A stretch of DNA of 64,000 nucleotides from positions 128,001 through 192,000 of the forward strand of contig OZ251459.1 of assembly GCA_965242525.1 (NCBI GenBank), in the 5' to 3' direction. This document shows positions 29,436 through 51,743 of the stretch, piece by piece. The notes under the pieces were generated by a model that was not told where the DNA came from, ran no database searches, and was given only the letters and a program-made list of their open reading frames with translations. Position numbers and translations under genes: made by a program. Source of the DNA: an uncultured Candidatus Binatia bacterium. Its GTDB lineage: Bacteria; Desulfobacterota; Binatia; UBA9968; JAJDTQ01. The first letter of the stretch is position 1; each line of letters starts with the position of its first letter.

Positions 29436-30877
29436 CCGGGCTGCACGCGCTGACTCCCCTCGTCCTGCTGGGCGTGACGCCGCTGGCGCTCATGCTGGCG
29501 ATCTCGTTCCGCCGCAGCCACCGGCTGGCCGCGGCCCTGTCCCTGGCGGGTCTCGCCCTGACCCTTGCGGTGCTGCCCGGGGCGGCCGGGAGCGCGGCGC
29601 CGCCGGTGGCGCCGCTTCTGGTCATCGACGCGTACGCGCTCTTCTACATCGGGCTGCTTTCCGCTGCCACGCTGGTGGTGGTAGTGCTGTCGTACGGCTA
29701 CCTGGAGCGCCTGCCGGGCCGCCCGGAGGAGTTCTACCTGCTGCTCACGCTGGCCGCGTTCGGGAGCGCGGTGTTGACGGCGAGCAACCACTTCGTGTCG
29801 TTCTTCCTGGGACTGGAGATCCTGAGCGTATCCCTGTACGGACTGGTGGCCTACGTTCGCACCACCCGGACGGCGCTGGAGTCCGGCGTCAAGTACCTGA
29901 TCCTGGCGGCGGCGTCCGCGGCCTTCCTGCTCTTCGGCATGGCGCTGATCTACGCGGCCCTGGGCACCATGGACTTCACCGCCATGACCGCGGTGCTGGC
30001 GGGCAAGACGCAGGAGTGGAACCCGTTGCTGCTCGGGGGCTTCGCCATGGTGGTCATCGGCGCCGGGTTCAAGCTGGCGGTGGCGCCCTTCCACATGTGG
30101 GCGCCGGACGTGTACCAGGGAGCGCCCGCGCCGGTGACGGCCTTCCTCACCACCGTTTCCAAGGGCGCCATGGTGGCGCTGCTGCTCCGGTACGCCCGGT
30201 ACGGCGGCCTTCTGGACTACTCGTCGGTGGCTCTGGCGCTGGGACTCGTGGCCGCGGCCTCCATGTTCCTGGGCAACCTCCTGGCGTTGCTGCAGGACAA
30301 CGTCAAGCGCCTGCTGGCCTGTTCCTCCATCGCCCATCTCGGTTACCTGCTGGTGGCGGTCATCGCCGCCTCCCGGGAAGGCTCCCACGCGGTGACCTTC
30401 TACCTGGTGGCGTACTTCGTCACGTCGCTGGGGATCTTCGGCATCATCACCGCGCTCTCGGACGAGCGCCGGGAGGCCGACGACCTGGACGACTACCGGG
30501 GCCTGTTCTGGCGCCGCCCCTGGGTGAGCGCCGCCCTGACGCTGATGCTGTTCTCCCTGGCGGGGATCCCGCTCACCGCGGGGTTCGTGGGCAAGTTCTA
30601 CGTGCTGGCCGCCGGGGTCCTGTCCGACCTGTGGGCCCTCGTCATCCTGCTCGTGGCCAGCAGCGTCATCGGCCTCTACTACTACCTGCGCTTCATCATC
30701 ACCCTGTACCTGTCCGCTCCCGAGGCCGAGACCCGCTCCCCCCTGCCCGCTTCCCGGCGGTTCTCCTTCCCCGAAGGTCTCGTGCTGGCCGGCCTCACGG
30801 TACTGCTGGTCTGGTTCGGCGTGTACCCGGCGCCGCTCCTGGGCGCCATCCAGGCCGCGGTGGGCAGCCTGACCTGA
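29432..30877 (+). CDS. nuoN: NADH-quinone oxidoreductase subunit N
   Basis: GTG start overlaps the nuoM stop; PFHMWAPDVYQGAP, SLAGIPLTAGFVGKF, YYYLR. Confidence 0.95.
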   Translation: MTGLHALTPLVLLGVTPLALMLAISFRRSHRLAAALSLAGLALTLAVLPGAAGSAAPPVAPLLVIDAYALFYIGLLSAATLVVVVLSYGYLERLPGRPEEFYLLLTLAAFGSAVLTASNHFVSFFLGLEILSVSLYGLVAYVRTTRTALESGVKYLILAAASAAFLLFGMALIYAALGTMDFTAMTAVLAGKTQEWNPLLLGGFAMVVIGAGFKLAVAPFHMWAPDVYQGAPAPVTAFLTTVSKGAMVALLLRYARYGGLLDYSSVALALGLVAAASMFLGNLLALLQDNVKRLLACSSIAHLGYLLVAVIAASREGSHAVTFYLVAYFVTSLGIFGIITALSDERREADDLDDYRGLFWRRPWVSAALTLMLFSLAGIPLTAGFVGKFYVLAAGVLSDLWALVILLVASSVIGLYYYLRFIITLYLSAPEAETRSPLPASRRFSFPEGLVLAGLTVLLVWFGVYPAPLLGAIQAAVGSLT

Positions 30878-30907
30878 AGCCGCGGGAAGTCCCGGGTGAG
30901 CCGCTCG

Positions 30908-31912
30908 ATGGAGACGAACCCCAAAGGGACCCGGCGCATCGTGGGAAACGCGGCGCAGCGTCGGCGGCGCATGATCGCCTTCGGCTGGTACGGCGGCAAG
31001 TTCAGCCACCTGGACTTCATCCTGCCCAACCTGCCGGAAGATGCACGGCATTTCTGCGACGTGTTCGGCGGTTCGGCCGCGGTCATCATCAACCGGAAGC
31101 CGGCGCCGGCGGAGACCTACAACGACCTCGACGGGGAACTGGTCAACTTCTTCGCTACCCTGCGCGACGCAAGGACGAGCGATCCGTTGATCAAGGCCAT
31201 CGCGCTTACGCCGTTTTCGCGCGAGGAACTGGTCCGGGCCTGTGAGCCGCCCGACGGCGTCGAGCCGGTGGAGCGGGCGCGTCGTTTCTTCGTGCGCGCG
31301 CGCCAGACGCGCACCGGTTTGGCCCAGACCTCTTCGGAAGGTCGTTGGGCGCACTGCGTGCTGACCTCCCGGGCGGGGATGGCCGGCGCGGTGTCCCGCT
31401 GGCTCGGATCGGTGGAAGGACTGCCGGAAATCGTCCAGCGCCTGCAGCGGATCCAGATCGAGAACGCACCGGCGCTGGAAGTGGTCGAGCGCTACGACAC
31501 CCCCGAAACCCTCTTCTACCTCGACCCGCCCTACGTGCACGACGCACGCGGAGACGCGATCGCCTACGGAGCGGAAATGAGCGACGCCGACCACGCCGAC
31601 CTTGCCCGGTTGCTGCACCGGATCAAGGGACGAGCGGCGATCTCGGGCTACCGCACGCCCCTGTACGATCGACTGTTCGGAGATTGGCTGCGCGTGGACG
31701 CCGACCCCCGCCTGTGCCATTCGGTGCGGCAGCCGCGGCAGGAGTCGCTGTGGATGAACTACGAGGCCGGCCGACCTGTTGCCGACCCGGTTCGGCGCGT
31801 ACCCGGAGCCGTTCTTGGACGCCATCCGGGCCGCGGGGGACAGCCTGATTTGACCGCTACGGGGGCTCGTCCGACTGTCGCAACCCTTGTGCAGACGGCT
31901 CCAACCCGTTAA
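30908..31912 (+). CDS. Dam/D12-family DNA adenine methyltransferase with a read-through tail
   Basis: WYGGK, DVFGGSAAV, YNDLD, YLDPPY, ISGY, ESLWMNY; the last 49 aa run through the nuoN-like duplication. Start could be 30896, 30908 or 30971. Confidence 0.9.
   Translation: METNPKGTRRIVGNAAQRRRRMIAFGWYGGKFSHLDFILPNLPEDARHFCDVFGGSAAVIINRKPAPAETYNDLDGELVNFFATLRDARTSDPLIKAIALTPFSREELVRACEPPDGVEPVERARRFFVRARQTRTGLAQTSSEGRWAHCVLTSRAGMAGAVSRWLGSVEGLPEIVQRLQRIQIENAPALEVVERYDTPETLFYLDPPYVHDARGDAIAYGAEMSDADHADLARLLHRIKGRAAISGYRTPLYDRLFGDWLRVDADPRLCHSVRQPRQESLWMNYEAGRPVADPVRRVPGAVLGRHPGRGGQPDLTATGARPTVATLVQTAPTR
31789..31853 (+). repeat. degenerate direct repeat of the nuoN 3' end (30813-30877)
   Basis: 55/65 identical, ungapped, and includes the TGA stop position. 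Confidence 0.9.
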
Positions 31913-31985
31913 GCAGGGAACTTGACGCATCGACCTCACAGGACCCCTTGGTAGGCGATTCCTTCGCCGGAGAAGGGACGACTCC

Positions 31986-34900
31986 GTGAACCAAACCATC
32001 GAAGACCTGATCGAAGACCATGCCATGCTCATGGCCGAGCAGATGCATGAGGCCGCGAAATGGGCCGGCTCGGAGGAGGACGTGCGCCATGCGTGCAACA
32101 CGCTCATCGACGACTTCATCAAAAAAGCGGGGCTGACCGTCAAAGGTCGGCATGAATACGGCTTGGCTGGTGGGCGCATCGACTCGAAATACGGCGGCGT
32201 GGTCATCGAATACAAGCATCCCAAGGGCGCTGGCCGGATCACCGAGAACAAGGACGCGCCAGGCGTCAGGGCTGTGGTCGAGCAGGTCAGGAAGCGGTTC
32301 CGGGACTTGCAGGCGGAAGAGCACGTCGGCATGGAGCGAATCCTCGGCGTCGGGTGCGACGGCGATACGCTCGTGTTCGTGCGGAAACACGGGAGCACGC
32401 TCGACGCCGAAGACCCGACGCCGGTCACGCCGCAGGCGGTCCAGCGCCTGCTACGCGCTATCGTCTCGCTGGGAGCGCGGGGGCTGTCGTTCACGCCCGA
32501 GAATCTGACCGTCCACTTCGGCGCGGAGGGCCAGAGTGCGCAACAGGGCATCCGCCTCATACACGACCTGATCCGCACGACCGACAGTCCCAAGGCCCGG
32601 ACGTTTTTCCGCCAGTGGCAGATCCTCTTCGGCGAGGTCTGCGGTTACGACATCCACGGCCGAAACGACAAAGTCCGCAAACTGGCCGACCATTACCAAG
32701 CGCCCGACCCGCACCCGGCCGAACTCCTGTTCGCCGTCCACAGCTATTACGCCCTTTTCATGAAAATGCTGGCCGCGGAGATCGTCGCGTCCTTTTCGCC
32801 ACTAGGCACTTCGACGCTGAAGAAACTCGTCTCTGCGCCCACGTCGGCCAAATTACGGGACGAACTCCGCAATCTCGAACAGGGCGGCATCTGGTCGCAA
32901 CTCGGTATCCGCAACTTTCTCGAAGGCGACCTGTTCTCCTGGTATCTCGACTCCTGGAACGAGGGCTGCGCGGAAGCCGTCAGGGCCATGACAGCCTCCT
33001 TCGACAGATTCGACCCGACCACTCTCAGCGTCGATCCCGCGGAGTCCCGCGACCTGCTCAAGCAGCTCTACCAGCAACTTTTTCCCAAGTCGGTGCGCCA
33101 CGACCTGGGCGAATACTACACGCCCGACTGGCTGGCCGAACTGGTGCTCGACGAACTCGGCTACGACGGCAACCCGGACAAACGGCTGCTGGACCCGGCC
33201 TGCGGCTCGGGCACCTTCCTGGTCATGGCGCTGAACCGGGTCCAGACCTGGTACGACGCGCACCGCCACGAGTGCGGCTTCGGGGAAGACGAACTATTGC
33301 GCAAAATCCTGCGCAACGTCATCGGCTTCGACTTGAACCCGCTGGCCGTCATGGCCGCCCGGACCAACTATCTGCTGGCTGTTCGCGAACTGCTGCGCCA
33401 CGCGGATAACGTCGAGTTGCCCGTCTATCTTTGCGACTCCATCATGACGCCTTCGGAGTACGGCGACATGTTCACCGGGGGCGCCAGTAACGCACGCCAA
33501 CTCAAGACCAGCGCCGGCGATTTCAACATCCCCACGGAAGTTACCGAAAACCGTGAACATATAGGGCGCTACGCCGATACGCTCGAAGCCTGTATCCGCA
33601 ACGGCTATTCACCCGACGAGTTCCTCGAACGGTGCGCCGCGGAGGCCATCCCTGCAACGCAAGGCCAACTGCATCAAGACCTCTACCGCCATCTCCAACG
33701 ACTTGCCGCGGACAACGAGAACGGCATCTGGGCGCGCATCATCAAAAACGCCTTCGCGCCACTGTTCATCGGCGCCGTGGACTACGTGGCCGGCAATCCG
33801 CCGTGGGTAAATTGGGAGCACCTGCCGGAAGGCTACCGCGACGGCATGAAACCGCTCTGGGACAGGTACGAACTCTTTACGCTTTCCGGGTCCGCCGGCC
33901 GCTTGGGCGGCGGCAAGAAGGACATCTCGATGTTGTTCACGTATTCCGCTGTGGACAACTACCTGTCCGAAGGCGGACGGCTCGGATTCGTCATCACGCA
34001 AAGCGTGTTCAAGACCTCGGGGGCAGGTGACGGATTCAGGCGATTGCGCTACAGGCGGAACGACACCGAAACGACCTGGTTGAAACCGCTCATGGTCCAC
34101 GACCTGAGCGCAATGCAGGTCTTCGAAGGCGCGGTCAACCGCACCGCGGTTTTCGTCTGCGAAAAGACGCCGCAGCCTTTCCGGTATCCCGTGCCATACA
34201 CGATGTGGACCGGGGCCGGTCGCATGGCTCAAAGTGAGTCGCTGTCGGATGTCCTCGAGGGGAGCAGACGAGTGCAAATCGAGGCCATCCCGGTCGTTGG
34301 CGCGAAAAATTCTTCCCCGTGGCTCACGGTCCCGCAACGCGCCCTGTCCGGCATTCGGAAAGTGATCGGCGCCAGCGGCTACCGGGCGTATGCGGGCTGC
34401 TGTACGTGGTTGAACGGCGTGTACTGGATCAACGTCGTCAAAACCCTGCCCACCGGCGAACTGCTGATCGAAAACCTTTCGGAAGTGGGGAAAGTCAAGA
34501 TCAAGCACGTACAAGCTGTGGTCGAACCGGACCTGGTCTATCCGTTGCTGCGTGGAAGAGACGTTCGACGCTGGCAGGCTGAACCTTCATCGCACATTAT
34601 TTTGGCCCAGGACCCGAAAATGCGAAAAGGCATCCCCGAAGCCGAAATGAAGCGCCGCTGGCCGAAGACATATGCCTACCTCAAGCAGTTCGAGGGCAGT
34701 TCCGAAGGACCTGAACGCGGGACGTTACGAGGGCGTTCCGGTTACCGGCGGTATTTCAACCCTGACGACGATCCATTCTACTCCATGTACAACGTTGGGC
34801 CTTATACGATGGCGAAATGGAAAGTTGTGTGGAGAGAACAGAGTTCCCTATTCCAGGCTGCCCTTGCCGGATCGAGTGCACGACGGGCCACGTTGCCCGA

Positions 34901-35246
34901 CCACAAGCTCATGCTGGTATCCTGCAAAAGCCAACAGGAAGCGAATTTTCTCATTGGAATGCTGAATTCCGCTCCAAGCCTCTTGGCAATTTACTCTTAC
35001 GTCATTTCAACTTCGACCTCGACACATGTTCTCGGCAATGTGTCCGTCCCCCAGTTCGACAAGGCCGACGCCGCTCACACTCGGCTGGCTGAACTCTCAC
35101 GCCAATGCCACGTTGCGGCAAGAAAAACCGGCGCGCAGGAGTTGAAGGAATTGGAGTCTGCAATCGATGAGGCGGGAGCCGGAATCTGGGGCATTACGAC
35201 GCCCGAACTGAAGGCGATTCAGGAGGCCTTGGCCGATGCGAAATGA
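31986..35246 (+). CDS. Type IIG restriction-modification enzyme (REase-N6-MTase-TRD)
   Basis: RIDS...IEYK nuclease motif, LGEYYTPDW, LDPACGSGTFL, NPPW, C-terminal TRD. Confidence 0.88.
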   Translation: MNQTIEDLIEDHAMLMAEQMHEAAKWAGSEEDVRHACNTLIDDFIKKAGLTVKGRHEYGLAGGRIDSKYGGVVIEYKHPKGAGRITENKDAPGVRAVVEQVRKRFRDLQAEEHVGMERILGVGCDGDTLVFVRKHGSTLDAEDPTPVTPQAVQRLLRAIVSLGARGLSFTPENLTVHFGAEGQSAQQGIRLIHDLIRTTDSPKARTFFRQWQILFGEVCGYDIHGRNDKVRKLADHYQAPDPHPAELLFAVHSYYALFMKMLAAEIVASFSPLGTSTLKKLVSAPTSAKLRDELRNLEQGGIWSQLGIRNFLEGDLFSWYLDSWNEGCAEAVRAMTASFDRFDPTTLSVDPAESRDLLKQLYQQLFPKSVRHDLGEYYTPDWLAELVLDELGYDGNPDKRLLDPACGSGTFLVMALNRVQTWYDAHRHECGFGEDELLRKILRNVIGFDLNPLAVMAARTNYLLAVRELLRHADNVELPVYLCDSIMTPSEYGDMFTGGASNARQLKTSAGDFNIPTEVTENREHIGRYADTLEACIRNGYSPDEFLERCAAEAIPATQGQLHQDLYRHLQRLAADNENGIWARIIKNAFAPLFIGAVDYVAGNPPWVNWEHLPEGYRDGMKPLWDRYELFTLSGSAGRLGGGKKDISMLFTYSAVDNYLSEGGRLGFVITQSVFKTSGAGDGFRRLRYRRNDTETTWLKPLMVHDLSAMQVFEGAVNRTAVFVCEKTPQPFRYPVPYTMWTGAGRMAQSESLSDVLEGSRRVQIEAIPVVGAKNSSPWLTVPQRALSGIRKVIGASGYRAYAGCCTWLNGVYWINVVKTLPTGELLIENLSEVGKVKIKHVQAVVEPDLVYPLLRGRDVRRWQAEPSSHIILAQDPKMRKGIPEAEMKRRWPKTYAYLKQFEGSSEGPERGTLRGRSGYRRYFNPDDDPFYSMYNVGPYTMAKWKVVWREQSSLFQAALAGSSARRATLPDHKLMLVSCKSQQEANFLIGMLNSAPSLLAIYSYVISTSTSTHVLGNVSVPQFDKADAAHTRLAELSRQCHVAARKTGAQELKELESAIDEAGAGIWGITTPELKAIQEALADAK

Positions 35247-35300
35247 CGGCTATGGAAGTCGGTCGGATCTCCGAGGACATGGGGCAGGGGGGCGAGGATC

Positions 35301-37052
35301 ATGGCGCAGGCTCCAGTGAACGAGACGAGGTCCACCACCGCCGAAGACACCCTGGCGGCCAAGAGCCGGGACCGGAGCGTGGTCTCCGGCGGCCATCTGG
35401 TGGCGTCGGCGCTCAGGAACGAGGGCGTCGATACCATATTCACGCTGTGCGGCGGCCATATCATCGACATCTACGACGGCTGCATCGACCACGGCATCCG
35501 GGTGGTGGACGTGCGCCACGAGCAGGTGGCGGCCCATGCTGCGGACGGCTACGCCCGGCAGACGGGCCGGCTGGGCTGCGTGGTGACCACCGCGGGGCCC
35601 GGCTTCACCAACGCGTTGACCGGCATCGCCACCGCGTTCCGTTCCGAGAGCCCGGTGCTCCACATCGGCGGGCAGGGCGCCCTCACCCAGCACAAGATGG
35701 GTTCGCTGCAGGACCTGCCGCACGTGGACATCGCCGCGCCCATCACCAAGTTCTCGGCCGGAGTGCGCTCCACCGAGCGCATTGCCGACATGGTGACCAT
35801 GGCCGCGCGCGAATGCTTTGCGGGGGCTCCGGGTCCCAGCTACCTGGAGATCCCCCGGGACGTGCTCGACCGGGAGGCGCCGGTGGAGAAGGTCGTGGCG
35901 CCGCAACCCGGAGGTTACCGGGCGTCCACCAAGTCCATCGGGGACCCCGCGGACGTGGAACGGCTGGCGGAGCTCCTGGTCCGATCCGAGCGTCCCGCGG
36001 TCCTGCTCGGCAGCCAGGTGTGGACCTGCCGGGGACACGAGGCGGCCGCGGCCCTGTTCAAGTCCCTCAACGCGCCCTGCTACATGAACGGGGCGGCCCG
36101 GGGCATCCTGCCGCCCGGCGACCCACACTACTTCAACCGCACCCGGGCCGACGCCTTCCACGAGGCCGACGTCATCGTGGTGGTGGGCACGCCGTTCGAC
36201 TTCCGCATGGGCTACGGCCGGCGGCTGCGCGCCGAAGCGGCCGTGGTCCACATCGACATGGACTACCGCACGGTGGCCAGGAACCGCGACGTCTCCCTGG
36301 GGCTGGTGGGCGACCCCGGCGCCGTGCTGAAGGCGGTGCACGACGCAGTGGAGGAACGCAAGGACAACGGCGCCGGCGCCCGGACCGGGTGGCTCGAGCG
36401 TCTCCGGGACCTGGAGGAGGAGAGGCTGCGGAAGCTCATGCCGCTGTTCCGCTCCGACGCCAACCCCATCCATCCCTACCGGGTGGCCTGGGAGCTCAAC
36501 CGGTTCCTCACCGAGGACACCATCTACATCGGCGACGGCGGCGACGTGGTGACCATCAGCGCCCAGGCGGTGGAGCCTCGTGCCCCCGGCAACTGGATGG
36601 ACCCGGGGGCGCTGGGGTCGTTGGGGGTGGGCACCGGGTTCGCGCTGGCCTCGAAGCTGGCGCACCCGGAAAAGGAAGTGCTGTGCTACTATGGGGACGG
36701 CTCCTTCGGCATGACCGCCTTCGACATGGAGACCGCCAACCGGTTCGGCGCCCCCTACATCGCGGTCATCGGCAACAACTCCGCCATGAACCAGATCCGC
36801 TACGGCCAGCTCTCCAAGTACGGCGAGGAACGCGGCAACGTGGGGAACCTCCTGGGGGACGTGCCCTTCTCGAAGTTCGCCGAGATGCTGGGCGGGTACG
36901 GCGAGGAGGTCACCGACTGCAACGAGGTCGCGCCGGCGCTGGGCCGTGCGCGGCAGGCGGTGCGGACTTCCGGCAAGTCCGCGGTGGTCAACGTCTGGGT
37001 GGACGCGGGGGAATGGGCCCCCGGCACCAAACGGCAGACCATGTACCGGTGA
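35301..37052 (+). CDS. ThDP-dependent enzyme, probable oxalyl-CoA decarboxylase / 2-hydroxyacyl-CoA lyase-like
   Basis: VRHEQ, TAGPG, GDGSFG...NN ThDP motif; function inferred from the adjacent frc. Confidence 0.75.
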   Translation: MAQAPVNETRSTTAEDTLAAKSRDRSVVSGGHLVASALRNEGVDTIFTLCGGHIIDIYDGCIDHGIRVVDVRHEQVAAHAADGYARQTGRLGCVVTTAGPGFTNALTGIATAFRSESPVLHIGGQGALTQHKMGSLQDLPHVDIAAPITKFSAGVRSTERIADMVTMAARECFAGAPGPSYLEIPRDVLDREAPVEKVVAPQPGGYRASTKSIGDPADVERLAELLVRSERPAVLLGSQVWTCRGHEAAAALFKSLNAPCYMNGAARGILPPGDPHYFNRTRADAFHEADVIVVVGTPFDFRMGYGRRLRAEAAVVHIDMDYRTVARNRDVSLGLVGDPGAVLKAVHDAVEERKDNGAGARTGWLERLRDLEEERLRKLMPLFRSDANPIHPYRVAWELNRFLTEDTIYIGDGGDVVTISAQAVEPRAPGNWMDPGALGSLGVGTGFALASKLAHPEKEVLCYYGDGSFGMTAFDMETANRFGAPYIAVIGNNSAMNQIRYGQLSKYGEERGNVGNLLGDVPFSKFAEMLGGYGEEVTDCNEVAPALGRARQAVRTSGKSAVVNVWVDAGEWAPGTKRQTMYR

Positions 37053-37072
37053 CCCGCGGACCAGGGAACGTC

Positions 37073-38353
37073 ATGGACAAGGCACTCTCCGGCATTCGCA
37101 TCCTGGACATGACCCACGTGCAGGCAGGCCCCACCTCCAGCCAGCTCATGGCCTTCCTGGGAGCGGACGTCATCAAGCTCGAATCCCCCGCGGGGGACGC
37201 CACGCGCCGGCAACTCCGGGACATGCCGGACGCGGACAGCCTCTACTTCACCATGCTGAACTGCAACAAGCGGTCCATCACTGTGAACCTGAAGAACGCC
37301 CGAGGCAAGGAGGTCTTCACCCGGCTGGTGCAGGCGTGCGACGTGCTGCTGGAGAACTTCGGCCCCGGCGTGCTGGAGCGGCTCGGTTTCGGCTGGGAGA
37401 AGGTGCACGAACTGAACCCCCGGCTGGTCATGGGCTCCATCAAGGGCTTCGGCAGCGAGGGGCCCTACGCCTCGTTCAAGGCCTACGAGAACGTGGCCCA
37501 GGCCATGGGCGGGGCCATGAGCACCACCGGGCTGTTCGACGGCCCTCCGGTGGCCACCGGCGCGCAGATCGGCGACTCGGGCACCGGCGTGCACCTGCTG
37601 GCGGGCATATTGGCGGCGCTGCTCCAGCGGGAGCGCACGGGACGCGGCCAGTACGTGGAATGCGCCATGATGGACTGCGTCATGAACCTCTGCCGCGTCA
37701 AGTGGCGGGACCACCAGCGCCTCGACCGCGGCCCGCTGGCAGAGTACTCGGTGCAGGAGTTCGAGGACTTCACGCCCCGGGCGGGCAACGACTCCGGCGG
37801 CGGGCAGCTCGGCAACGCGGTGCCGTGCAAGCCCGGCGGCGCCAACGACTACCTCTACGTGGTGGTCCAGGAGCACGTGTGGAACGCCCTGGCCGCCCGC
37901 ATCGGCGGCGGTTCGCTGGCCGCGGACCCGCGCTTCGCCGACATCGACGCCCGGCGCGCCAACCAGGCGGAGATGTGGCGCCTGCTGGCGGACTTCGCCC
38001 GGGACTACACCAAGTGGGAGCTCATGGAGATCCTCAACGAGCTCGACGTTCCCTGCGGCCCGGTCATGAGCACCGCGGACCTGGCCGACGACGAGCACGT
38101 CCAACTCCGGGAGATGATGGTGGAAGTGGATCATCCCGAACGCGGCCCGTGGCGCAACGTGGGCTGCCCCATCAAGCTCTCGGACTCCCCCGTGGAGGTC
38201 CGCCCCTCCCCCCTGCTGGGCGAGCACACCGACGAGGTCCTGCGCGAGGTCCTGGGCTACGGCGCTGAAGAGGTCGCCCGGCTCCGGCAGGAGGGGGCGT
38301 TCACGCGGGAGCCGCCGGCTCAGTCCGGCAACGTGAAGAAAGGTAAGTCTTGA
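37073..38353 (+). CDS. frc: formyl-CoA transferase (family III CoA-transferase)
   Basis: THVQAGP, DSLYFTMLNCNKRS, KAYENVAQ, AQIGDSGTG (catalytic Asp), PRAGNDSGGGQ glycine loop. Confidence 0.92.
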   Translation: MDKALSGIRILDMTHVQAGPTSSQLMAFLGADVIKLESPAGDATRRQLRDMPDADSLYFTMLNCNKRSITVNLKNARGKEVFTRLVQACDVLLENFGPGVLERLGFGWEKVHELNPRLVMGSIKGFGSEGPYASFKAYENVAQAMGGAMSTTGLFDGPPVATGAQIGDSGTGVHLLAGILAALLQRERTGRGQYVECAMMDCVMNLCRVKWRDHQRLDRGPLAEYSVQEFEDFTPRAGNDSGGGQLGNAVPCKPGGANDYLYVVVQEHVWNALAARIGGGSLAADPRFADIDARRANQAEMWRLLADFARDYTKWELMEILNELDVPCGPVMSTADLADDEHVQLREMMVEVDHPERGPWRNVGCPIKLSDSPVEVRPSPLLGEHTDEVLREVLGYGAEEVARLRQEGAFTREPPAQSGNVKKGKS

Positions 38354-39114
38354 TGGCCAAGTGCAGACTGGCCGATTGGCAGGCGGAGAGTCTGCGGCTC
38401 TCCGCTTTCTTGGCCGAAGCGATGGACCCGACGAAGATGCGCTTCTGGGAGTCCCTGGTCGGGAGCCCGCCGGAAGAGCTGCGCAACCGGCCGCAACAGC
38501 AGTTGTTCACCGAGGAAGGTCCCTTCCTCGATGGGCGGCTTCGTGTCCAGGCGAGCAACAATCGAATAGACTGGATGTTGTTCCCGGCCCTCGACAATCC
38601 TCGTTCCGAACTGCCTGTAGTCGGGCCGTATGACGTTCTGGATCAGGGTTTCCGGGAATTGATGCGAAGATGGATCGTTGATTGTCCGCCTGTCAACAGG
38701 CTTGGATATGGCGGCGTGTTGCTGCTGCCGGTCGGAAGTTTGCCGGATGCACACGGAAGACTCGACGGGTTGCTCCCGGCGGTTGAGATCGACCCCGGGA
38801 ATACGCGGGATTTCATGTATCGAATCAACAGGAGACGTGTTTCACGCTGTTCCATTGAGGGACTGGAAGTCAATCGCCTGTCAACGTGGTCTGTGGTTCA
38901 GGTCATCGAAACCCTCGTCGAGTTGTCCGCAGACGGCCAGCAAACGCCGAAAGTGACCCACCAGCCGGGATCGAGGAGCATTTGCAGACTGGAGATCGAC
39001 ATCAACACCGCCCCGGAATTCAGCCGGGTACTCGACAGGGATGCCGTACCCGAAGTCTTCGAGGAGCTTGTCGATATCGGCAATGAAATCGCTATGGAAG
39101 GAGACGTTCGATGA
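38353..39114 (+). CDS. hypothetical protein, cassette gene A (253 aa; possibly TIGR04255-like)
   Basis: ATG overlaps the frc TGA; atypical A/T-richer codons; alpha/beta pattern ending RLEIDINT. Family resemblance is from memory only. Confidence 0.7.
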   Translation: MAKCRLADWQAESLRLSAFLAEAMDPTKMRFWESLVGSPPEELRNRPQQQLFTEEGPFLDGRLRVQASNNRIDWMLFPALDNPRSELPVVGPYDVLDQGFRELMRRWIVDCPPVNRLGYGGVLLLPVGSLPDAHGRLDGLLPAVEIDPGNTRDFMYRINRRRVSRCSIEGLEVNRLSTWSVVQVIETLVELSADGQQTPKVTHQPGSRSICRLEIDINTAPEFSRVLDRDAVPEVFEELVDIGNEIAMEGDVR

Positions 39115-39797
39115 ATGGCGAAGTCGTTTCGACGGAAACCGCCTCTGCACTGCGGAATACGTTCGGTGAACTTGCCACAGGCATGGAATCAGCGTCTCTG
39201 GTGTGGCTTGTGCCAGGTGACGCCACCGAAGACTTGCGGCGGTGGAGTAGTAGGGCGTTTCGAGATCCAACCGGGAACATCATACGGCTTGCCAATGCCC
39301 GGCCGTTGGAGGAGATTGCGGGTGTTGTGGACGGTTGCGCCACCGTCAACAAGAGCACGCCGGTTGCTTCCATCCCTCGCCAAGTGGGAGAGCAATTGAA
39401 CCGCTTGTGTCTGGCCGCTCATGACGAGCAGTTCGAAGCCGGCGTCGAGAGCCGGTTTTCCAGAGGTCTCCAACAACTATTCGCATATGATCCAGCATCG
39501 GTGTTGCAAGCTCTGAGGGTGCGATTGACGAATAACGACGCAAGCTCGGAGGTGTTGGCCGAAATATTGCAGTGGACTTCGCGTCAGGAGGCGGACGCCA
39601 TACGCGCCCTTGTCGTCGATCTGCTGTCAACGGGACTCCATCACACGGCGTCGTTGGTGCGGGACGCGGCAGCGTCAGGGCTGGCCTATCTGGATGAAGG
39701 CGCAGCCATTTCCCACCTCCGGCAAGCCCTCGCAAGAGAGAAGGTGCCCGAGCTTCGGCAGGATTTGGAGGATCTCATCTGCTCGTTGGAGTCCTGA
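39111..39797 (+). CDS. hypothetical protein, cassette gene B, C-terminal HEAT-like repeat
   Basis: GGAG RBS, ATGA overlap with gene A; LVRDAAASGLAYL...AISHLRQALAREKVPELR. Confidence 0.7.
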   Translation: MNGEVVSTETASALRNTFGELATGMESASLVWLVPGDATEDLRRWSSRAFRDPTGNIIRLANARPLEEIAGVVDGCATVNKSTPVASIPRQVGEQLNRLCLAAHDEQFEAGVESRFSRGLQQLFAYDPASVLQALRVRLTNNDASSEVLAEILQWTSRQEADAIRALVVDLLSTGLHHTASLVRDAAASGLAYLDEGAAISHLRQALAREKVPELRQDLEDLICSLES

Positions 39798-39802
39798 AGC
39801 TC

Positions 39803-40303
39803 GTGTCGGCGCTCTTCCGAAAGCTGAGCCAGAAACGGCATTGGGATGCCGAGTCCTGGCTTGAGCCGGGAGACCTCCAGGCGGATGCGACCAAATGTCT
39901 GGCGACGAGTGAGAACAAGCTGTCCGTCTTCGTGTTGGAGGAACCTGACGAACAGGTGGAAAGAGTCGTCGCCGCGTTGGCCGTTACTCGAGACAGCTTG
40001 GCGCATCTTGATATGGCCCTTGCCCCTGAAGAGATCCTTGCGCGATGTGGGATTCGACGGGACGGAGTTCCAGGACAGACGGCTGATTTCAAGGTCAACG
40101 AATGGCATCAGGATCTCGTTGAGTTGACGGTTATGAAAATCGCGCGATTCGCTGCCGCCATAAGAAGCGGCGGAGAGATCAGGCGCTATAATTGGAAGAA
40201 AGTGGGAGCGGCAATCCGGCAGTCCTTGAACGCCGGCTACATCGGCCCTGAACACATCAATGGGAAACTGTTCCAGTCGCTGAGAAGGCGAGGGATCCTC
40301 TAG
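39803..40303 (+). CDS. hypothetical protein, cassette gene C (166 aa), possible ADP-ribosyltransferase-like fold
   Basis: GGAG RBS plus GTG; LFRKL...ADA..CL.TSENKLSVF...PGQT...HQDL pattern (N-terminal Arg strand, LS strand, late His). The fold is an inference. Confidence 0.6.
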   Translation: MSALFRKLSQKRHWDAESWLEPGDLQADATKCLATSENKLSVFVLEEPDEQVERVVAALAVTRDSLAHLDMALAPEEILARCGIRRDGVPGQTADFKVNEWHQDLVELTVMKIARFAAAIRSGGEIRRYNWKKVGAAIRQSLNAGYIGPEHINGKLFQSLRRRGIL

Positions 40304-40318
40304 GGGAGGTCACATAAG

Positions 40319-42463: not shown

Positions 42464-42508
42464 GGGGTCCGGGGACGGGCCGCCAACCACTTGCGGGAGG
42501 GAAGACTC

Positions 42509-43468: not shown

Positions 43469-44922
43469 TGGACCTCCAGGACTTGACCATCGCCGAGGCG
43501 GCGCGCCGGATCGAGGCCGGCGAGCTCTCGCCGGTGGAGTTGACCCGTTCGTACCTGGAACGCATCCACCGCCTGGACCCCGAGATCAACGCGTACGTCA
43601 CCGTGACCCGGGACCGAGCGTTGGCGGACGCGGCCCGGGCCGAAGCCGACCTGGCCGCGGGGGGTTGCCGCGGCCCGCTGCACGGCGTTCCCGTCTCCGT
43701 CAAGGACAACTTGGCCACTGCGGGGGTGCGCACCACCGCGGGCTCGAAGATGCTGGCCGATTGGGTCCCGGACGAGGACGCCACGGTGGTGGCAAGGCTC
43801 AGGCAGGCCGGGGCGGTGGTCCTGGGCAAGACCAACCTGCACGAATGGGCCGCGGGTTGCTCCACCATCAACCCCTACTACGGCGCCACGCGCAACCCGT
43901 GGGACCGGAACCGGGTGCCGGGCGGCTCCAGCGGCGGCTCCGCGGCGTCGGTGGCGGCCGGCCTTGCGCTGGGGTCCATCGGCACCGACAACGCCGGCTC
44001 CGTGCGCAACCCCGCGTCCCTGTGCGGCGTGGTGGGGCTCAAGGCCACCTACGGCCGGGTGAGCCGCTTCGGCGGGGTGGCCGGCACCGGCGGTTACTCC
44101 ACCGACCACTTCGGCGTCCTCACCCGGACCGTGCGCGACAGCGCCCTGATGCTCCAGGCCATCGCCGGTTTCGACCCCCGGGACCCCCTGTGCAGCGACG
44201 CCCCTGTGCCGGATTTCGGCGCCCGCGTGGGCGAGGATGTGGCGGGCTTGCGGGTCGGGGTCGTCCGCGGCTACTTCGACGCCCTTGCGGTGGACGAGGT
44301 CAAGGAGGCGGTGGCGAAGGCCGTCGGGCTGCTGGAGTCCCTGGGCATGTCCGTGCAAGAGCTGTCGATCCCCCACATGGAGCACGTCCCCGCGGTGCAG
44401 AACTGCATCTCCCGGGTGGAGAACCTGTCCCCGGCCGAGCCCTTCCTGCGCGCCCGTCCGCGGGACTACAGTCCGGAGTTGTTGCACCGGCAGGTGCGCG
44501 CGCTGGCCATCCCCGCCCACGGCTACGTGACCGCCCAGCGGGTGCGTCGACTCATCTGCGAAGCCTTCGACGAGGCTTTCCGGCAGGTGGACGTGATCGT
44601 AGGTCCGACGGTGGGCATGCCCGCGGAGACCATGGAGGAGTGCCGGCGCGGGTACGTGGAATCGCCCGGGGGGCGGATCCCGTTGCAGGACGCCCGCGGC
44701 ACCCGGGGCACCCTGTGCACGATCCCGTTCAACCTCACCGGCGCGCCGGCCATCAGCGTGAACTGCGGGTTCTCCGCCCGGGGCCTGCCCATCGGCCTGC
44801 AGATCGCCGCAGCGCCTTTCGAGGAGCCGACCCTGCTCCAGGTGGCCCACGCCTACGAGCAGGCGGCCGGATGGTACGCGAGGAAGCCGCGGCTGGATCC
44901 CGTTGGAGCAGGCGAACCGTAG
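43468..44922 (+). CDS. amidase-signature enzyme (GatA-like)
   Basis: GPLHGVPVSVKDN, GKTNLHE, GGSSGGS, GTDNAGSVRNPA, GLPIGLQ. Confidence 0.92.
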   Translation: MDLQDLTIAEAARRIEAGELSPVELTRSYLERIHRLDPEINAYVTVTRDRALADAARAEADLAAGGCRGPLHGVPVSVKDNLATAGVRTTAGSKMLADWVPDEDATVVARLRQAGAVVLGKTNLHEWAAGCSTINPYYGATRNPWDRNRVPGGSSGGSAASVAAGLALGSIGTDNAGSVRNPASLCGVVGLKATYGRVSRFGGVAGTGGYSTDHFGVLTRTVRDSALMLQAIAGFDPRDPLCSDAPVPDFGARVGEDVAGLRVGVVRGYFDALAVDEVKEAVAKAVGLLESLGMSVQELSIPHMEHVPAVQNCISRVENLSPAEPFLRARPRDYSPELLHRQVRALAIPAHGYVTAQRVRRLICEAFDEAFRQVDVIVGPTVGMPAETMEECRRGYVESPGGRIPLQDARGTRGTLCTIPFNLTGAPAISVNCGFSARGLPIGLQIAAAPFEEPTLLQVAHAYEQAAGWYARKPRLDPVGAGEP

Positions 44923-45063
44923 GAACCGCTGAACAGTCGGGACAGGGGAGGCATGAGCGCGTCCTTCGACTCCGCTTCGCTACGCTCAGGACGAACGGGG
45001 ACAGGGGCCAGGGTGGAGGAATTGGGAACCCATCCCGGATGTCTCGGTTGTTCAGAGGTTCCC
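44921..45063 (+). mobile_element. MITE-like element, copy E
   Basis: TIRs plus core; the left end overlaps the amidase TAG stop. Confidence 0.8.
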
Positions 45064-45191
45064 GTAGCGGACGCAGGGAAACGGACCCGTTCCACTGCCT
45101 CGCAGCGGATTCCCTCTTGCCCGGAACGGCGTCCGGGTCAGCGGCAGGGGCGGTCCGGGAGCCGTCCCGCAATCCGGGAGGTACGACGACC

Positions 45192-46262
45192 ATGAGATAC
45201 CGGGACTTGGGAGTGCTGGTTTACGACAAGGCCAAGGCAACGCCGGGTTACACGCTGATCGTGCCGCAGTCGTCGAGGAAGGCGTACCTCATCGGGCTTC
45301 GGGGAGAGGTGCTGCACGAGTGGAGTTTTCCCCTGTGCCCGGGAAACTACGCCTACCTGCTGCCCAACGGCAACCTGCTGTGGGCCGGCCGGATGGAGGA
45401 GGGACCGCCGTTGCGCCGGGGCAAGGGCGGGCTGCTGCGGGAGTACACATGGGACGGGGAGGTGGTGTGGGAGTACTGCGACCCGGCCCAGCACCACGAC
45501 TTCCGCAGGCGGCCCGACGGCAACACCATCTACATCGGCTGGGAGCCGGTCCCGGCCGACGTGGCCCCCAGGATACGGGGCGGCCAACCCGGCAGCGAGC
45601 GCGACGGGGTCACCTACGGCGACTACGTGCGGGAGGTCTCGCCCGCGGGCGAGACGGTGTGGGAATGGCACGCCTGGAGCGGCCTGGACCTGGACCGCTG
45701 GGAGATCTGCCACTGCTGCGGCCGGGACGAGTTCGCCCACGCCAACGCCTGTTTCCCGCTGGAGGACGGGGGCGTGATGCTCAGCTTCCGACGCTTCAGC
45801 GCCCTCATGATGATCGACCGGGAGACCCGCAAGGTGCGCTGGTCCCAACAGGACGTGACCTGGGGCCACCAGCACGACTGCACGCTCCTGCCCAACGGCA
45901 ACGTCCTGTTCTTCGCCAACGGCATCCACGGCATCGAAAACCCCTTCTCCCGGGTCATCGAGCTCGACCCGGAGTCGGGCGAGACCGTCTGGGAATACCG
46001 GGGATCGCCCATCTGGACCTTCTTCAGCCCCAACATCAGCGGCGCCCAACGCTTCGAGAACGGCAACACCCTGGTCTGCGAGGGGCAGATGGGGCGCGCC
46101 TTCGAGGTCACCCGCGCGGGCGAGATCGTCTGGGAGTACGTCTGCCCGTACTTCGCCGACTACGAGGGCCGCGGCCCCGGCAACAGCATGTTCCGGGTCT
46201 ATCGCTACGCCGCGGACTCGCCGGAGATCCGCGGGAGGCTGGCGACGCCGGTGGCTTGGTAG
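45192..46262 (+). CDS. aryl-sulfate sulfotransferase (ASST-like beta-propeller)
   Basis: GGAGG RBS, ATG 45192; LPNGNLL, QHHDF, HAN, QHD, SGAQR, GNTLVCEG. Confidence 0.82.
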   Translation: MRYRDLGVLVYDKAKATPGYTLIVPQSSRKAYLIGLRGEVLHEWSFPLCPGNYAYLLPNGNLLWAGRMEEGPPLRRGKGGLLREYTWDGEVVWEYCDPAQHHDFRRRPDGNTIYIGWEPVPADVAPRIRGGQPGSERDGVTYGDYVREVSPAGETVWEWHAWSGLDLDRWEICHCCGRDEFAHANACFPLEDGGVMLSFRRFSALMMIDRETRKVRWSQQDVTWGHQHDCTLLPNGNVLFFANGIHGIENPFSRVIELDPESGETVWEYRGSPIWTFFSPNISGAQRFENGNTLVCEGQMGRAFEVTRAGEIVWEYVCPYFADYEGRGPGNSMFRVYRYAADSPEIRGRLATPVAW

Positions 46263-46307
46263 GCGCCCCGGGCCCACGGCGTCGGCTCCAGGCAAGGACT
46301 TCCAGAG

Positions 46308-47242
46308 ATGGACCCCGAAACCAGTCCGTTCCGACCCGGACAACCTGCGCCGGTGGAGTTGTTCGTCGGACGCAGCCGCGAGGTCGAACGCCTTTCGGCG
46401 ACCGCGTCCGCAAGGTGGGACTGTTCGGCGTGACGATCGAGTTGGACCTTGCGGACCGGGACCTTTCGACCCTCGCCCATGACTTCGTTCCGACCGTGGC
46501 GCGGCTTCTGGACGGCATCGGCAAACGGAAGAAGGGCCTCTTCCTGATCCTCGACGACATCAACGGCCTTGCAGGATCCGAGGGCTTCGCCGACTGGCTC
46601 AAGAGCACCGTGGACGAGATGGCCACGTCCCGGCGGAAGGCGCCGCTCTGTGTGCTGGTGGTGGGACTGGAAGAGCGGCGGCGGGAACTGGTGGCAAGGC
46701 AACCGTCCCTGGCCCGGGTCTTCGAGTTGATCGACGTTGCCCCGTGGCCGGACGACGACGTCATGGGTTTCTTCCGCAGCTCGTTCGGTTCCGTGAACGC
46801 CGCGGTGGGGGAGGCGGACCTGCGCGAGCTCGTCCGGTTCAGCGGCGGACTTCCGGTGCTGGCGCACGAGCTCGGCGACGCCGTATGGCGCAGGGCCAAG
46901 CGTCCCGACATCGGTTCGAAAGAAGTCCAGTCGGGCATCTGGACCGCGGCCGAGATGATCGGACGCAAGCTGCTGGAGCCCCAGGTCTTCAGCGCCATCC
47001 GCAGCGAGCGCTACCGGTCGATCCTGCGGAAGACTCTAGACGAACCCCGGTTGCGCTTCCGCAGGTCTGAACTGGTGGAACGCCTGACGAGCGGCGAGCG
47101 CAAGGTCATGGACAACTTCCTGCAACGCATGAAGCGCCTGGGCGCCCTGGAAACCGACCCCGAAGTCCAGGGCGGATACCGGTTCCCCAACCTCCTCCAC
47201 GCACTGTATTTCTGGATGGAGTCGCAGCGGGCCGCCCGGTGA
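46308..47242 (+). pseudogene. AAA/STAND-like ATPase pseudogene with an internal deletion
   Basis: The N-terminus MDPETSPFRPGQPAPVELFVGRSREVERL shifts frame near 46395 into FGDRVRKVGLFG...LFLILDDING (Walker B) and SGGLPVL. No Walker A is present. Confidence 0.75.
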
Positions 47243-47287
47243 GGTCCGCCGGGCGGGCGCGCCAGCGAACGTCCCTTCGAGGACCGT

Positions 47288-47341
47288 CCCCGGCAAACGC
47301 ATGTTTCGGGTGTACCGCTACGCTCCGAACTCGCCGGAGAT
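47288..47341 (+). repeat. degenerate direct repeat of the ASST 3' region (46175-46228)
   Basis: 46/54 identical, ungapped; MFRVYRYAPNSPE versus MFRVYRYAADSPE. Confidence 0.9.
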
Positions 47342-47373: not shown

Positions 47374-47515
47374 AGGAAACCCTGAACAATCGGGACAGGG
47401 GACATGAGCGCGTCCTTCGACTTCGCTACGCTACGCTCAGGACGAACGGGGATAGGGGCGTCAGGGTGAGGGAATCGGGAATCCATCCTGGATCTCTCGA
47501 TTGTTCAGAGGTTCC
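47374..47515 (+). mobile_element. MITE-like element, copy F
   Basis: TIRs AGGAAACCCTGAACAATCGGGACA / TCTCGATTGTTCAGAGGTTCC plus core. Confidence 0.8.
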
Positions 47516-47550
47516 ATAAGGCAGGACGGAAAGGGGAGCGACAGGGGTCA

Positions 47551-51722: not shown

Positions 51723-51743
51723 GATGAGAGGGAATGACGGGAT

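Follow-up and report, generated by a model that had tools for sequence, protein, structure and literature searches.

An architecture in which a resident gene is followed by a short cassette, mostly of defense type, and then by a decayed direct copy of part of the resident gene recurs at 13 loci in the 4.2-Mb genome of an uncultured Candidatus Binatia bacterium. The best explanation, to which we give a probability of roughly 60%, is a variant of insertion with long target duplication, with broader cargo and unusually frequent. Two instances, behind nuoN and behind an ASST-like gene, lie in the window, the 64,000-nt stretch of contig OZ251459.1 analyzed here. An initial annotation had proposed a recurrent, integrase-free architecture; the recurrence stands, and the pattern is one already described for restriction-modification (RM) genes (Furuta et al., 2010; PMC2853133), which that annotation did not recognize.

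The nuoN locus comprises the following features.

29432..30877, forward strand: nuoN, the host gene, which closes the nuo operon (Pfam Proton_antipo_M, E=4e-74)
30787..30883, forward strand: left nuoN repeat copy, consisting of the functional tail, the stop codon and ~6–9 nt more (gapped alignment with 31765–31857)
30896..31912, forward strand: cargo 1, predicted D12-class (Dam-like) N6-adenine DNA methyltransferase ORF (Pfam PF02086, E=8e-17)
31765..31857, forward strand: right nuoN repeat copy, decayed and joined to ancestral intergenic DNA (ungapped and gapped alignment)
31986..35246, forward strand: Type IIG restriction-methyltransferase gene (PADLOC REase_MTase_IIG PDLC03630, full length, 1062 bits)

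The copy of the nuoN tail behind the cassette, as initially annotated, is borne out. Without gaps, positions 30804–30877 (74 nt, including TGA) match 31780–31853 at 81% identity, and both copies end in TGA; with gaps the repeat measures 97/93 nt, the second copy lying 976 nt downstream of the first, and a blastn search of this locus with the nuoN tail returns 60 nt at 86.7% (E=3e-15). Seventeen of 18 same-genus relatives can be aligned up to the nuoN stop codon, and the closest relative, G435, through 30886. In G435, where nuoN is 95–96% identical, a single tail is followed by 81 nt and then by the Type IIG gene (83% identity), constituting an empty site in which no scar was seen. The spacer between nuoN and the RM gene in G435 contains blocks that match the DNA 3′ of the window's right copy, not the DNA after the functional stop codon. 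The Type IIG gene adjoined nuoN before the methyltransferase came.

The nuoN insert, ~880 nt long, is nearly exactly a single ORF. Its native part spans 30896–31762; its original stop codon has been lost, and its final 49 codons are a read-through into the nuoN copy in another frame. Judged by profile matches over the catalytic core and by motifs, the predicted product belongs to the D12-class (Dam-like) N6-adenine methyltransferase family: PF02086 scores 62 bits against a cut-off of 22, PADLOC MTase_II PDLC03244 scores 149 bits (aa 29–293 matching profile positions 31–289 of 295), and the translation contains DVFGGS and LDPPYVH (FGG, DPPY), which we take to be the AdoMet-binding and DPPY motifs. 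TIGR00571 remains below its cut-off (48 vs 115). Homologues stop at '...LWMNY', aa 285–289 here, or after a short tail, and homology to the family ceases ~2 nt short of the nuoN copy, at the last conserved residues. A leader of 12–18 nt, depending on the junction estimate, separates the duplicated DNA or nuoN stop from the GTG start, and cargo placed this tightly behind the host stop is probably transcribed by host read-through.

In the 74-nt register, 12 of the 14 differences in the right copy are present in none or one of nine relatives (9 of 14 in none), and the differences are mostly non-synonymous. The copy diverges from the functional tail by 19–23%, whereas nuoN of G000 and G435 diverge by only 4–5%. 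Three readings of this mismatch are possible: the copy drifts far faster than constrained codons, G435 shed the insert through repeat-mediated deletion, or the two copies differed from the outset.

The second locus and the hotspot in which it lies contain the following features.

44871..46262, forward strand: ASST-like host gene, likely start 45192 (Pfam Arylsulfotran_2, Arylsulfotrans)
46160..46228, forward strand: left ASST repeat copy, within the gene, ending 34 nt short of the stop (ungapped and gapped alignment)
46308..47242, forward strand: cargo 2, pseudogene of a 393-aa AAA_16/ATPase_2/nSTAND1-type ATPase (97% identity to P0001, 393 aa)
47275..47341, forward strand: right ASST repeat copy, decayed (ungapped and gapped alignment)
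47407..47684, no strand assigned: REP-like multicopy repeats at the right border of the ASST copy, outside the duplication (copies number in the hundreds here and in relatives)
47934..51695, forward strand: Type ISP/IIG-like RM gene (Pfam Type_ISP_C, N6_Mtase, Eco57I; PADLOC REase_MTase_IIG)
52122..54017, reverse strand: OLD/Gabija-A-like AAA_15/AAA_21 ATPase at the right end of the hotspot (Pfam/PADLOC scans)

The ASST gene aligns up to its stop codon in all 11 relatives. Its claimed tail copy is real (46172–46228 vs 47285–47341, 57 nt, 84% ungapped; 69/67 nt gapped, 1.1 kb downstream), but the copied stretch does not include the very end of the gene, and no similarity extends beyond 47341 (an equal alignment score was reached in 1997 of 2000 shuffles). 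A copy that falls short of the stop is contrary to simple target duplication, so a later deletion must be assumed. Seven of the nine differences in the right copy are found in no relative. An eroded ASST copy is present at L032, where the first ~30 nt of the right copy lie behind the ATPase gene with the same 2-nt deletion. Because the insert and part of the copy are common to the closest relative, the event is older than the split, an age that fits the ~16–19% decay of the copy. None of the 11 relatives has a second copy of the ASST segment (in G005 only 0.3 kb lies between the flanks), and none of the relatives compared differs solely by the ASST insert. The core gene to the right resumes at 54145, and the Type ISP/IIG-like RM gene has further copies, 82–91% identical, in about seven other regions of the genome.

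Both window cassettes are single-gene, as initially described, that at ASST being a broken gene. A tblastn search with P0001 places residues 1–35 at 46308–46412 and residues 109–393 at 46385–47239, in another frame; at 46393/46394, an additional 247 nt are present in the closest relative and in contigs from two runs. In this genome, cargo 2 has been broken by a 247-nt internal deletion. Residues 36–108, including the Walker A sequence GERGIGKS, are missing, and the P-loop NTPase domain is not intact. Full-length relatives match AAA_16, ATPase_2 and nSTAND1, and PADLOC has no matches to the family. A member of this ATPase family also occurs in L038, a Latescibacterota genome, beside a GH12-domain gene. 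The two genes are enclosed by 60-nt direct repeats (92% identical), of which the left one forms the 3′ end of the upstream ORF, stop codon included; the four neighboring ORFs scanned contain no integrase. At 19 of 22 loci of this ATPase family in other genomes, the flanking repeat is absent.

The genome-wide survey used genes from a home-made gene caller covering 82% of the genome. An unbiased scan for local repeats gave 4618 matches, with 1440 left after filters for length, spacing and collinear paralogy. Orientation is even among repeat families with at least six copies (638 direct, 653 inverted), whereas low-copy local repeats of 40–260 nt (three copies or fewer) are direct in 112 cases and inverted in 8. 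Gene tails with a downstream copy account for 13 direct rows, nuoN and two mixed rows, and gene heads with an upstream copy for three rows and two mixed; tails outnumber heads only modestly (14 vs 4, p=0.03), for classes set after looking at the data and genes from the home-made caller. Low-copy direct repeats are thus more frequent than chance, but in a first scan limited to tails, orphan copies showed no overall excess (22 vs 15–25 in three control layouts). A third, weaker case at an ADH gene did not hold up and is at chance level: the tail has no better copy than 18 nt with 83% identity (E=0.26), its scan score is 12 against a threshold of 20, and the only ADH gene (59564–60661, reverse strand) lies outside the range to which the initial annotation had assigned the pattern.

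At the 13 curated loci, some of them nested, direct repeats of 54–184 nt with 77–95% identity enclose inserts of 365–6503 nt, the smallest of which (365–881 nt) are filled by the cargo ORF. The repeat pairs listed have one to three genome-wide matches each, and are low-copy rather than members of an IS or REP family. Most pairs are old (77–87% identical); young pairs of 90–95% exist, among them that of FrsA (95% over 154 nt). The target sequence differs at every locus, and inspection by eye of the 26 junction sequences revealed no shared motif, in agreement with the earlier remark that the duplicated segments are unlike each other. Cargo includes D12 and N6_N4 methyltransferases, MTaX1-HNH, the YhcG nuclease, GmrSD, AAA_15/21 ATPases, MNT-HEPN, MazE and a Fic-like protein. 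A defense, methyltransferase or toxin-antitoxin domain (Pfam/PADLOC) occurs in the cargo of 11 of the 13 loci, which bears out the claim of defense-type cargo; insertion behind expressed housekeeping genes fails as a general rule, about half of the 'host' genes being defense-type themselves. Cargo shares the orientation of the host gene at 10 of 13 loci, not above the genome baseline of 0.75 for neighboring genes.

Recombinase genes are scarce. As initially reported, no integrase or transposase is present in the window, here among 43 ORFs (40 from the gene caller) scanned with Pfam, and the same kind of scan found no integrase in or around 12 further loci and no transposase within their inserts; a fragment of an ISL3 transposase was detected beyond the bounds of one locus, at a distance of ~700 nt. 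Three tyrosine recombinase genes were recognized in the genome by Phage_integrase matches, none of them closer than 228 kb to any of the 13 loci; the match at C1:2375752 scores too low for an XerC/D-like protein. Resolvase gave no match. A single trans-acting site-specific recombinase, one of the mechanisms suggested initially, is a poor fit to 13 unrelated targets, and RNA-templated insertion, another, has no support, the genome having no RVT_1 (reverse transcriptase) match. The loci do not look like insertions of an IS or transposon: the repeats are 54–184 nt vs a typical <15 bp, and no insert contains a transposase. No Ku gene was found in the genome, which leaves classical end-joining capture without support.

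Empty sites in relatives, envisaged from the start, exist for nuoN (G435), for the 6.5-kb FrsA island, which is absent in G002 and G005 with flanks 5–45 nt apart, and for YhcG, which is missing behind hsdM in G435. These independent empty sites, the predominance of direct over inverted low-copy repeats and the recurrent defense-related cargo make it quite improbable that the two window cases are unrelated accidents, local duplications with later unrelated insertions, and the genome pattern a filter artifact, even with post hoc classes, incomplete gene calling and the lack of excess in the tail-only scan on the side of that reading. An origin as eroded integrative islands, with attL/attR repeats left by a site-specific integrase that worked in trans or has since disappeared, is very improbable. 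Integrases typically target gene 3′ ends, with repeats of tens of bases. Integrase-type insertion is the first class listed by Furuta et al. (2010; PMC2853133), and the location and repeat lengths seen here would suit it, as would an element to which the C1:2375752 match could belong. It accords poorly, however, with the distance to the nearest integrase, with inserts small enough to be filled by one cargo ORF, with 13 different repeat sequences in which no common core was seen by eye, and with the scarless empty site of G435.

We also regard as unlikely, though to be taken seriously, that the duplications arose as side effects of homologous or homology-facilitated illegitimate recombination at variable hotspots, in which DNA from a related strain is anchored in a core gene, brings its own gene tail and cargo and is joined illegitimately at the far end, with no dedicated insertion process. 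The two tails would then be orthologous and never identical. Both window sites are indeed hotspots with variable gaps: nuoN and oxc are separated by 1.0 kb to ~25 kb of varied content in the 12 of 18 relatives in which both flanks were located, and ASST and the next core gene by 0.3–5.0 kb in 11 relatives, the window having 7.9 kb there. Identity of the Type IIG gene drops to 83% between genomes whose flanks are 95–96% identical, and the 15–20% divergence of the copies is near the between-species level in the genus (82–89% identity). Run contigs break precisely at the stop codon of nuoN and, ~10 nt within the repeat, at 31775. Against this origin, the differences found in no relative, at nuoN and at ASST alike, amount to decay rather than an orthologous allele, and where the nuoN tails of G000 and G435 differ, the copy has the G000 states. 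Moreover, double homologous exchange produces no duplication, young pairs such as that of FrsA exist, and the same architecture occurs in the Latescibacterota genome.

Under insertion with long target duplication, the event would leave ~50–180 nt of target on either side of the insert; selection would keep the gene-attached copy and the other would drift. Primary insertion would be independent of target sequence and use host repair or recombination functions. The long repeats and flanking core genes could then serve as portable homology through which RecA-type recombination would delete, permute or transfer modules between strains, which would explain the differing methyltransferase/Type IIG combinations in related strains. 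Further module combinations appear in contigs of public runs: in one X7 contig the methyltransferase is followed by 1.2 kb that does not resemble the window and then by oxc, and X5 and X6 contigs diverge directly after the nuoN stop codon. Campbell-type integration and excision and tandem amplification run through long direct repeats, and those found here, at 50–180 nt, are long enough for RecA-dependent recombination. In line with such exchange, G000 and G435 differ by a circular permutation of the msrA locus, which would be the expected product of excision and re-entry or of amplification and deletion. Most pairs, at 77–87% identity, have probably diverged too far for recombination today. 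The run contigs, in which the listed joints have short sides of 20–30 nt, revealed neither circular nor excision junctions, and no amplified array was observed.

Insertion with long target duplication of RM genes reportedly goes back to Nobusato and colleagues in 2000. Furuta, Abe and Kobayashi (2010; PMC2853133) describe it for RM types I–IV, orphan M genes and mcrA, the lone mcrA included, point out that start or stop codons are often covered by the repeats, so that the target gene survives, and cite RM amplification (their reference 84). The loci here resemble those of that account in having inserts under 20 kb with no mobility genes, direct repeats over 30 bp that vary in length and are unique per locus, empty sites in related genomes with the repeat present once (nuoN, FrsA), a single methyltransferase or Type IV gene as sufficient cargo, and a cargo ORF that may fuse with target sequence. 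They depart from its screening criterion of R and M homologues in the insert, the nuoN insert being a methyltransferase only and the ASST insert an ATPase pseudogene. RM genes make up only about half of the cargo here, the rest being AAA_16/nSTAND, AAA_15/21 and HATPase_c_4 proteins, the YhcG nuclease, MNT-HEPN and MazE. Unlike the RM insertions as presented there, 13 loci share one genome, some nested, and their pairs are mostly old, whereas the pairs in its Table 2 are near-identical and young. The proposal made there that a break by the RM enzyme drives insertion is inapplicable to cargo without a nuclease. Of ten publications from 2014 on that use the term 'insertion with long target duplication' in the literature collection searched, none deals with other defense genes by title and abstract. 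As in the integrase-borne islands of Hochhauser et al. (2023; PMC10121019), defense genes here occupy variable hotspots between core genes, with content differing per relative, but no recombinase gene is in or near the inserts and the repeats are target-derived.

Current accounts, as given in Hochhauser et al. (2023), have defense systems riding on prophages, ICEs, transposons or integrase islets, and insertion with long target duplication has so far been an RM-specific curiosity. That 13 insertions, with very different cargo and some nested in defense islands, occur in a genome almost devoid of recombinase genes suggests a process independent of the cargo's own nuclease, and such insertion may be a regular route of defense-island growth. 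We offer only tentatively, and with considerable doubt, the wider idea that a general recombinase-free pathway docks short, promoterless defense or toxin-antitoxin cassettes at the 3′ ends of resident genes with 50–180-nt target duplications, the repeats then acting as portable homology for circle excision, amplification, permutation and re-insertion in related strains. The mechanism can be studied in this genome, whose examples are dated by repeat identities between 95% and 77%, and in related strains that combine the modules differently; if the wider idea is true, it would be a simple counterpart of the integron, by which defense islands are built gene by gene in lineages poor in classical mobile elements.

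The genome studied here (G000) is 4.23 Mb long with 67% G+C. We read the gene order of the window from codon-position G+C and Pfam matches:

29432-30877, +, nuoN (codon-position G+C, Pfam)
30896-31912, +, 338-codon ORF (cargo 1)
31986-35246, +, Type IIG restriction-methyltransferase gene
35301-38353, +, oxc and frc
38350-40303, +, three low-GC ORFs
between the low-GC ORFs and the ASST-like gene, +, four metabolic genes
ending at 46262, +, ASST-like gene
ending at 47242, +, 328-codon ORF (cargo 2)
between cargo 2 and the Type ISP/IIG-like gene, REP-like repeats
47934-51695, +, Type ISP/IIG-like gene
52122-54017, -, OLD-like ATPase
from 54145 on, core genes

As the initial annotation held, the window contains no integrase or transposase: none of the 43 ORFs scanned matches either family. 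A further Eco57I-like methylase/RM gene of 1356 aa lies at the left (2514-6584), making three large Type IIG-like genes in 64 kb. The Type ISP/IIG-like gene with its flanks (47845-51835) has counterparts at 82-91% nucleotide identity in about seven regions elsewhere in the genome; some are fragmented and differ in their middle part, and relatives also carry several copies. These genes are a multicopy family of ~1250-aa RM-like proteins with REP-like repeats at the borders. REP-like elements of ~45-110 nt (in the window, for example, 44956-45003, 47407-47451 and 51744-51834) are very abundant genome-wide. The three ORFs behind frc have a G+C of 0.57-0.61, and searches of Pfam, NCBIfam and PADLOC returned for them just one sub-threshold HEAT_2 match. 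Contig depth falls near zero over 38398-40218 in two of four sequencing runs while the flanks are covered, so this block seems to be strain-variable; no direct repeat was found flanking it (38350-40303).

The reported copies of host 3' ends were confirmed at nuoN and at ASST. The final 74 nt of nuoN, including the TGA, are repeated 976 nt downstream at 81% identity (gapped alignment, 30787-30883 and 31765-31857), with no further similarity past ~9 nt beyond the stop codon. At ASST, 46172-46228 is repeated at 47285-47341 with 84% identity (gapped alignment, 46160-46228 and 47275-47341); this copy ends 34 nt before the stop codon, and no similarity was found from there to the stop. The weaker third case, at ADH, did not hold up: the sole ADH gene (59564-60661, minus strand) has a best tail copy of 18 nt with E=0.26, as expected by chance, so that two of the three reported cases stand. 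A weak pair in oxc and frc (36725-36774 and 38023-38072; 50 nt, 70%) lies within two conserved host genes and was taken as chance. Most differences between the paired segments are private to the copies and occur in no relative (9 of 14 for nuoN, 7 of 9 for ASST), a pattern of decay; the idea that the copy keeps ancestral states is weakened, as at the one nuoN site concerned the closest relative genome (G435) has the G000 state. Promoter and terminator scans of both loci gave nothing above shuffled sequences, with consensus models that may not suit this host.

Among relatives, nuoN is alignable to its stop codon in 17 of 18 same-genus genomes, most of which resume at oxc 1.0-1.4 kb further on, and a second nuoN tail is found in none of nine relative loci examined. 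In all four relative loci in which the nuoN-oxc gap was inspected, it holds a minus-strand ORF of ~290-300 aa, whose sequence suggests a PhzF-like protein. In G435, nuoN is 95-96% identical through 30886 and is followed, 81 nt on, by the Type IIG gene at 83% (G435:C1:1564194-1567466). The spacer blocks of G435 match the DNA after the nuoN copy of the window, not the DNA after the functional stop codon. This arrangement thus represents an empty site for the methyltransferase, the right-hand copy having kept the original downstream DNA. The lower identity of the Type IIG gene relative to nuoN points to an RM gene that either was replaced by another allele or diverged fast. Contigs from public runs add other arrangements: one from X7 carries the methyltransferase, then from 31775 onward 1.2 kb unlike the window, then oxc, and contigs from X5 and X6 depart from the window immediately past the nuoN stop codon. 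Both genes are therefore present in G000, the Type IIG gene alone in G435, the methyltransferase alone, apparently, in X7, and neither in most of the genus. The contig joints listed have sides of 20-30 nt and resemble matches to repeats or to foreign DNA; not one of them spans an excised or empty cassette.

Cargo 1 is a D12-class methyltransferase (Pfam PF02086) whose residues 29-293 align to positions 31-289 of the 295-position PADLOC MTase_II profile, and relatives were found in 13 of 400 further genomes drawn from the phylum. These relatives terminate in '...LWMNY', followed by an immediate stop codon or a short variable tail. In cargo 1 the motif lies at aa 285-289, and 49 further codons cross the nuoN copy in another frame. 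At the other end, the GTG start follows the duplicated DNA after 12-18 nt, depending on the junction estimate chosen. Together, the family end and this short left gap indicate that the insert (~880 nt) is one ORF minus its stop codon. Within the read-through tail, 9 of the 14 differences fall at third positions of its frame, a bias for which selection and AT-to-GC drift at the second positions of nuoN codons, which are AT-rich, are equally good explanations.

Cargo 2 is a member of an ATPase family (380-393 aa) that matches AAA_16, ATPase_2 and nSTAND1. Its best relative, P0001 (393 aa, 97% identical), maps to the window in two frames, residues 1-35 at 46308-46412 and residues 109-393 at 46385-47239; the missing part contains the Walker A motif, which leaves a broken gene. 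At exactly this break the genome of the closest relative has 247 extra nt, as do contigs from two public runs, which makes the deletion recent and particular to the G000 strain. In the closest relative, an intact ATPase gene stands behind ASST, and after it come the initial ~30 nt of the ASST copy, which show an identical 2-nt deletion; the insertion therefore predates the split of the two genomes. Among 11 relatives, none has an ASST tail copy, and ASST is separated from the next core gene by 0.3-5.0 kb with differing ORFs in each, compared with 7.9 kb in the window. Since no PADLOC model matches the ATPase family, its 'defence-type' label is putative. Family members of 60-92% identity occur in genomes recorded as Binatia, Terriglobia, Acidobacteriota, Latescibacterota, Pirellulales, Sedimentisphaerales and Spirochaetia, a spread that suggests horizontal transfer. 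Bracketing repeats were absent from 19 of 22 ATPase-family loci checked. In a Latescibacterota locus (L038), direct repeats of 60 nt and 92% identity (2574-2633 and 5339-5398), the left one comprising the 3' end and stop codon of an upstream ORF, enclose a GH12-domain gene and the ATPase gene, with no integrase in the four neighbouring ORFs scanned. One of the other two pairs is a repeated leader before two adjacent ATPase genes of different families, and the other is just 20 nt long.

We searched the genome for recurrence in two ways. When the last and first 100 nt of each of 3195 genes called by a codon-usage model were compared with 8 kb on either side, orphan downstream tail copies (22) were no more numerous than those in three control layouts (15-25), but long decayed copies are concentrated in the downstream-tail class. 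An unbiased scan, in which each 2-kb chunk was compared on both strands with the 8 kb after it (blastn, word size 7), gave 4618 hits; 1440 of them remained once pairs had been filtered by length (40-260 nt), by spacing (0.3-8 kb) and for collinear paralogy. REP-like elements, which are common to the genus, account for ~1290 of these pairs, direct and inverted being equal in number (638 and 653 for families with at least six genome copies). Pairs with no more than three copies are 112 direct vs 8 inverted. The direct pairs include 57 in-frame paralogue motifs or within-gene repeats, 21 pairs in DNA without a called gene, gene tails with a downstream copy (13 rows plus nuoN and two mixed rows) and gene heads with an upstream copy (three rows plus two mixed). 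Tails exceed heads by 14 to 4 (p=0.03), an excess that is suggestive only, as the classes were defined after seeing the data.

Thirteen loci in G000 with a host gene and its cargo
nuoN: D12 methyltransferase
ASST: AAA_16 ATPase pseudogene
MFS transporter: 80-aa ORF, opposite strand, no family
SLFN/AlbA_2 gene: NTP_transf_2 and HEPN
Fic gene: MazE-like antitoxin
msrA: Sel1 protein, unknown ORF, D12 methyltransferase
hsdM: YhcG/DUF1016 nuclease
AAA_21 ATPase: HATPase_c_4 / Fic-like_C protein
HTH_3-Peptidase_M78 gene: N6_N4 methyltransferase
SNF2/NOV_C helicase: AAA_15 ATPase and GmrSD
DUF4143 ATPase: ORF with weak AbiEi_4 match
FrsA-like esterase: 6.5-kb island
Band_7 gene (nested in the FrsA island): N6_N4 methyltransferase and MTaX1-HNH

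Repeat length at these loci is 54-184 nt and repeat identity 77-95%; several repeats cross the stop codon and extend ~30-110 nt past it, and the inserts span 365-6503 nt, with a G+C of at most 0.63 in nine of the 13. In at least five loci the right-hand junction falls either inside the last cargo ORF or within ~32 nt of its stop codon. Inspection of the junctions by eye revealed no common motif, and co-orientation of cargo and host (10 of 13) is not above the baseline of 0.75. The D12 methyltransferase behind nuoN is no close paralogue of the one behind msrA (best blastp E=0.14). The hsdM repeat (L074 2894-2993 and 4148-4247; G000:C1:3548894-3550247) includes the first ~30 nt past the hsdM stop codon, and the YhcG ORF, which starts within the left copy, may have borrowed the start of the original gene after hsdM.

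Several of these loci differ among relatives in ways that point to later recombination. The FrsA island is missing from two genomes (G002 and G005), where 5-45 nt separate its flanks; in G435, hsdM has no YhcG gene behind it; and in G433 the helicase is followed directly by GmrSD, without the ATPase. The 2.4-kb methyltransferase-HNH cassette nested in the FrsA island (L078 2469-4841; G000:C1:392469-394841) is found in G435 at 92% identity in a non-homologous chromosomal place (L106 1501-3309), with a 554-nt internal deletion and REP-like neighbours. At msrA, the unit of unknown ORF and methyltransferase and the unit of spacer and msrA-tail copy stand in swapped order in G000 (L073; G000:C1:3413001-3420000) and G435 (L091). 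The two orders are circular permutations of each other, an outcome that either excision with re-entry or amplification with subsequent deletion would be expected to give.

The insertions match a known pattern. Furuta et al. (2010; PMC2853133) report 'insertion with long target duplication' of RM genes of types I-IV, of orphan methyltransferases and of mcrA on its own, with repeats that often cross start or stop codons and cargo that can fuse with target sequence, and propose that a double-strand break introduced by the RM system plays a part. Several cargoes in G000 lack a nuclease, so such a break cannot be general here. We favour, at a probability of about 0.6, a sequence-independent insertion driven by the host that would duplicate the target, after which the repeats and the core genes on either side would mediate recombination. 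The main loose ends of this reading are that the ASST copy is short, that the nuoN copy has diverged strongly for the distance between G000 and G435, and that no intermediate was seen directly. Its main rival, in which the tail of a donor gene was captured during homology-anchored illegitimate recombination, is appreciably less probable. That the pairs are coincidences or filter artefacts is improbable, and slightly more so is their origin as eroded integrase islands. The genome has three Phage_integrase matches, all at least 228 kb from each of the 13 loci, and the two strong ones look like XerC/D. Resolvase, RVT_1 and Ku have no match in it.

Under the favoured host-driven insertion, the long-term survivors would be only those pairs that have diverged enough to stop recombining. 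About half of the 'host' genes are themselves defence-type, and the islands thus seem to grow by nested insertions.
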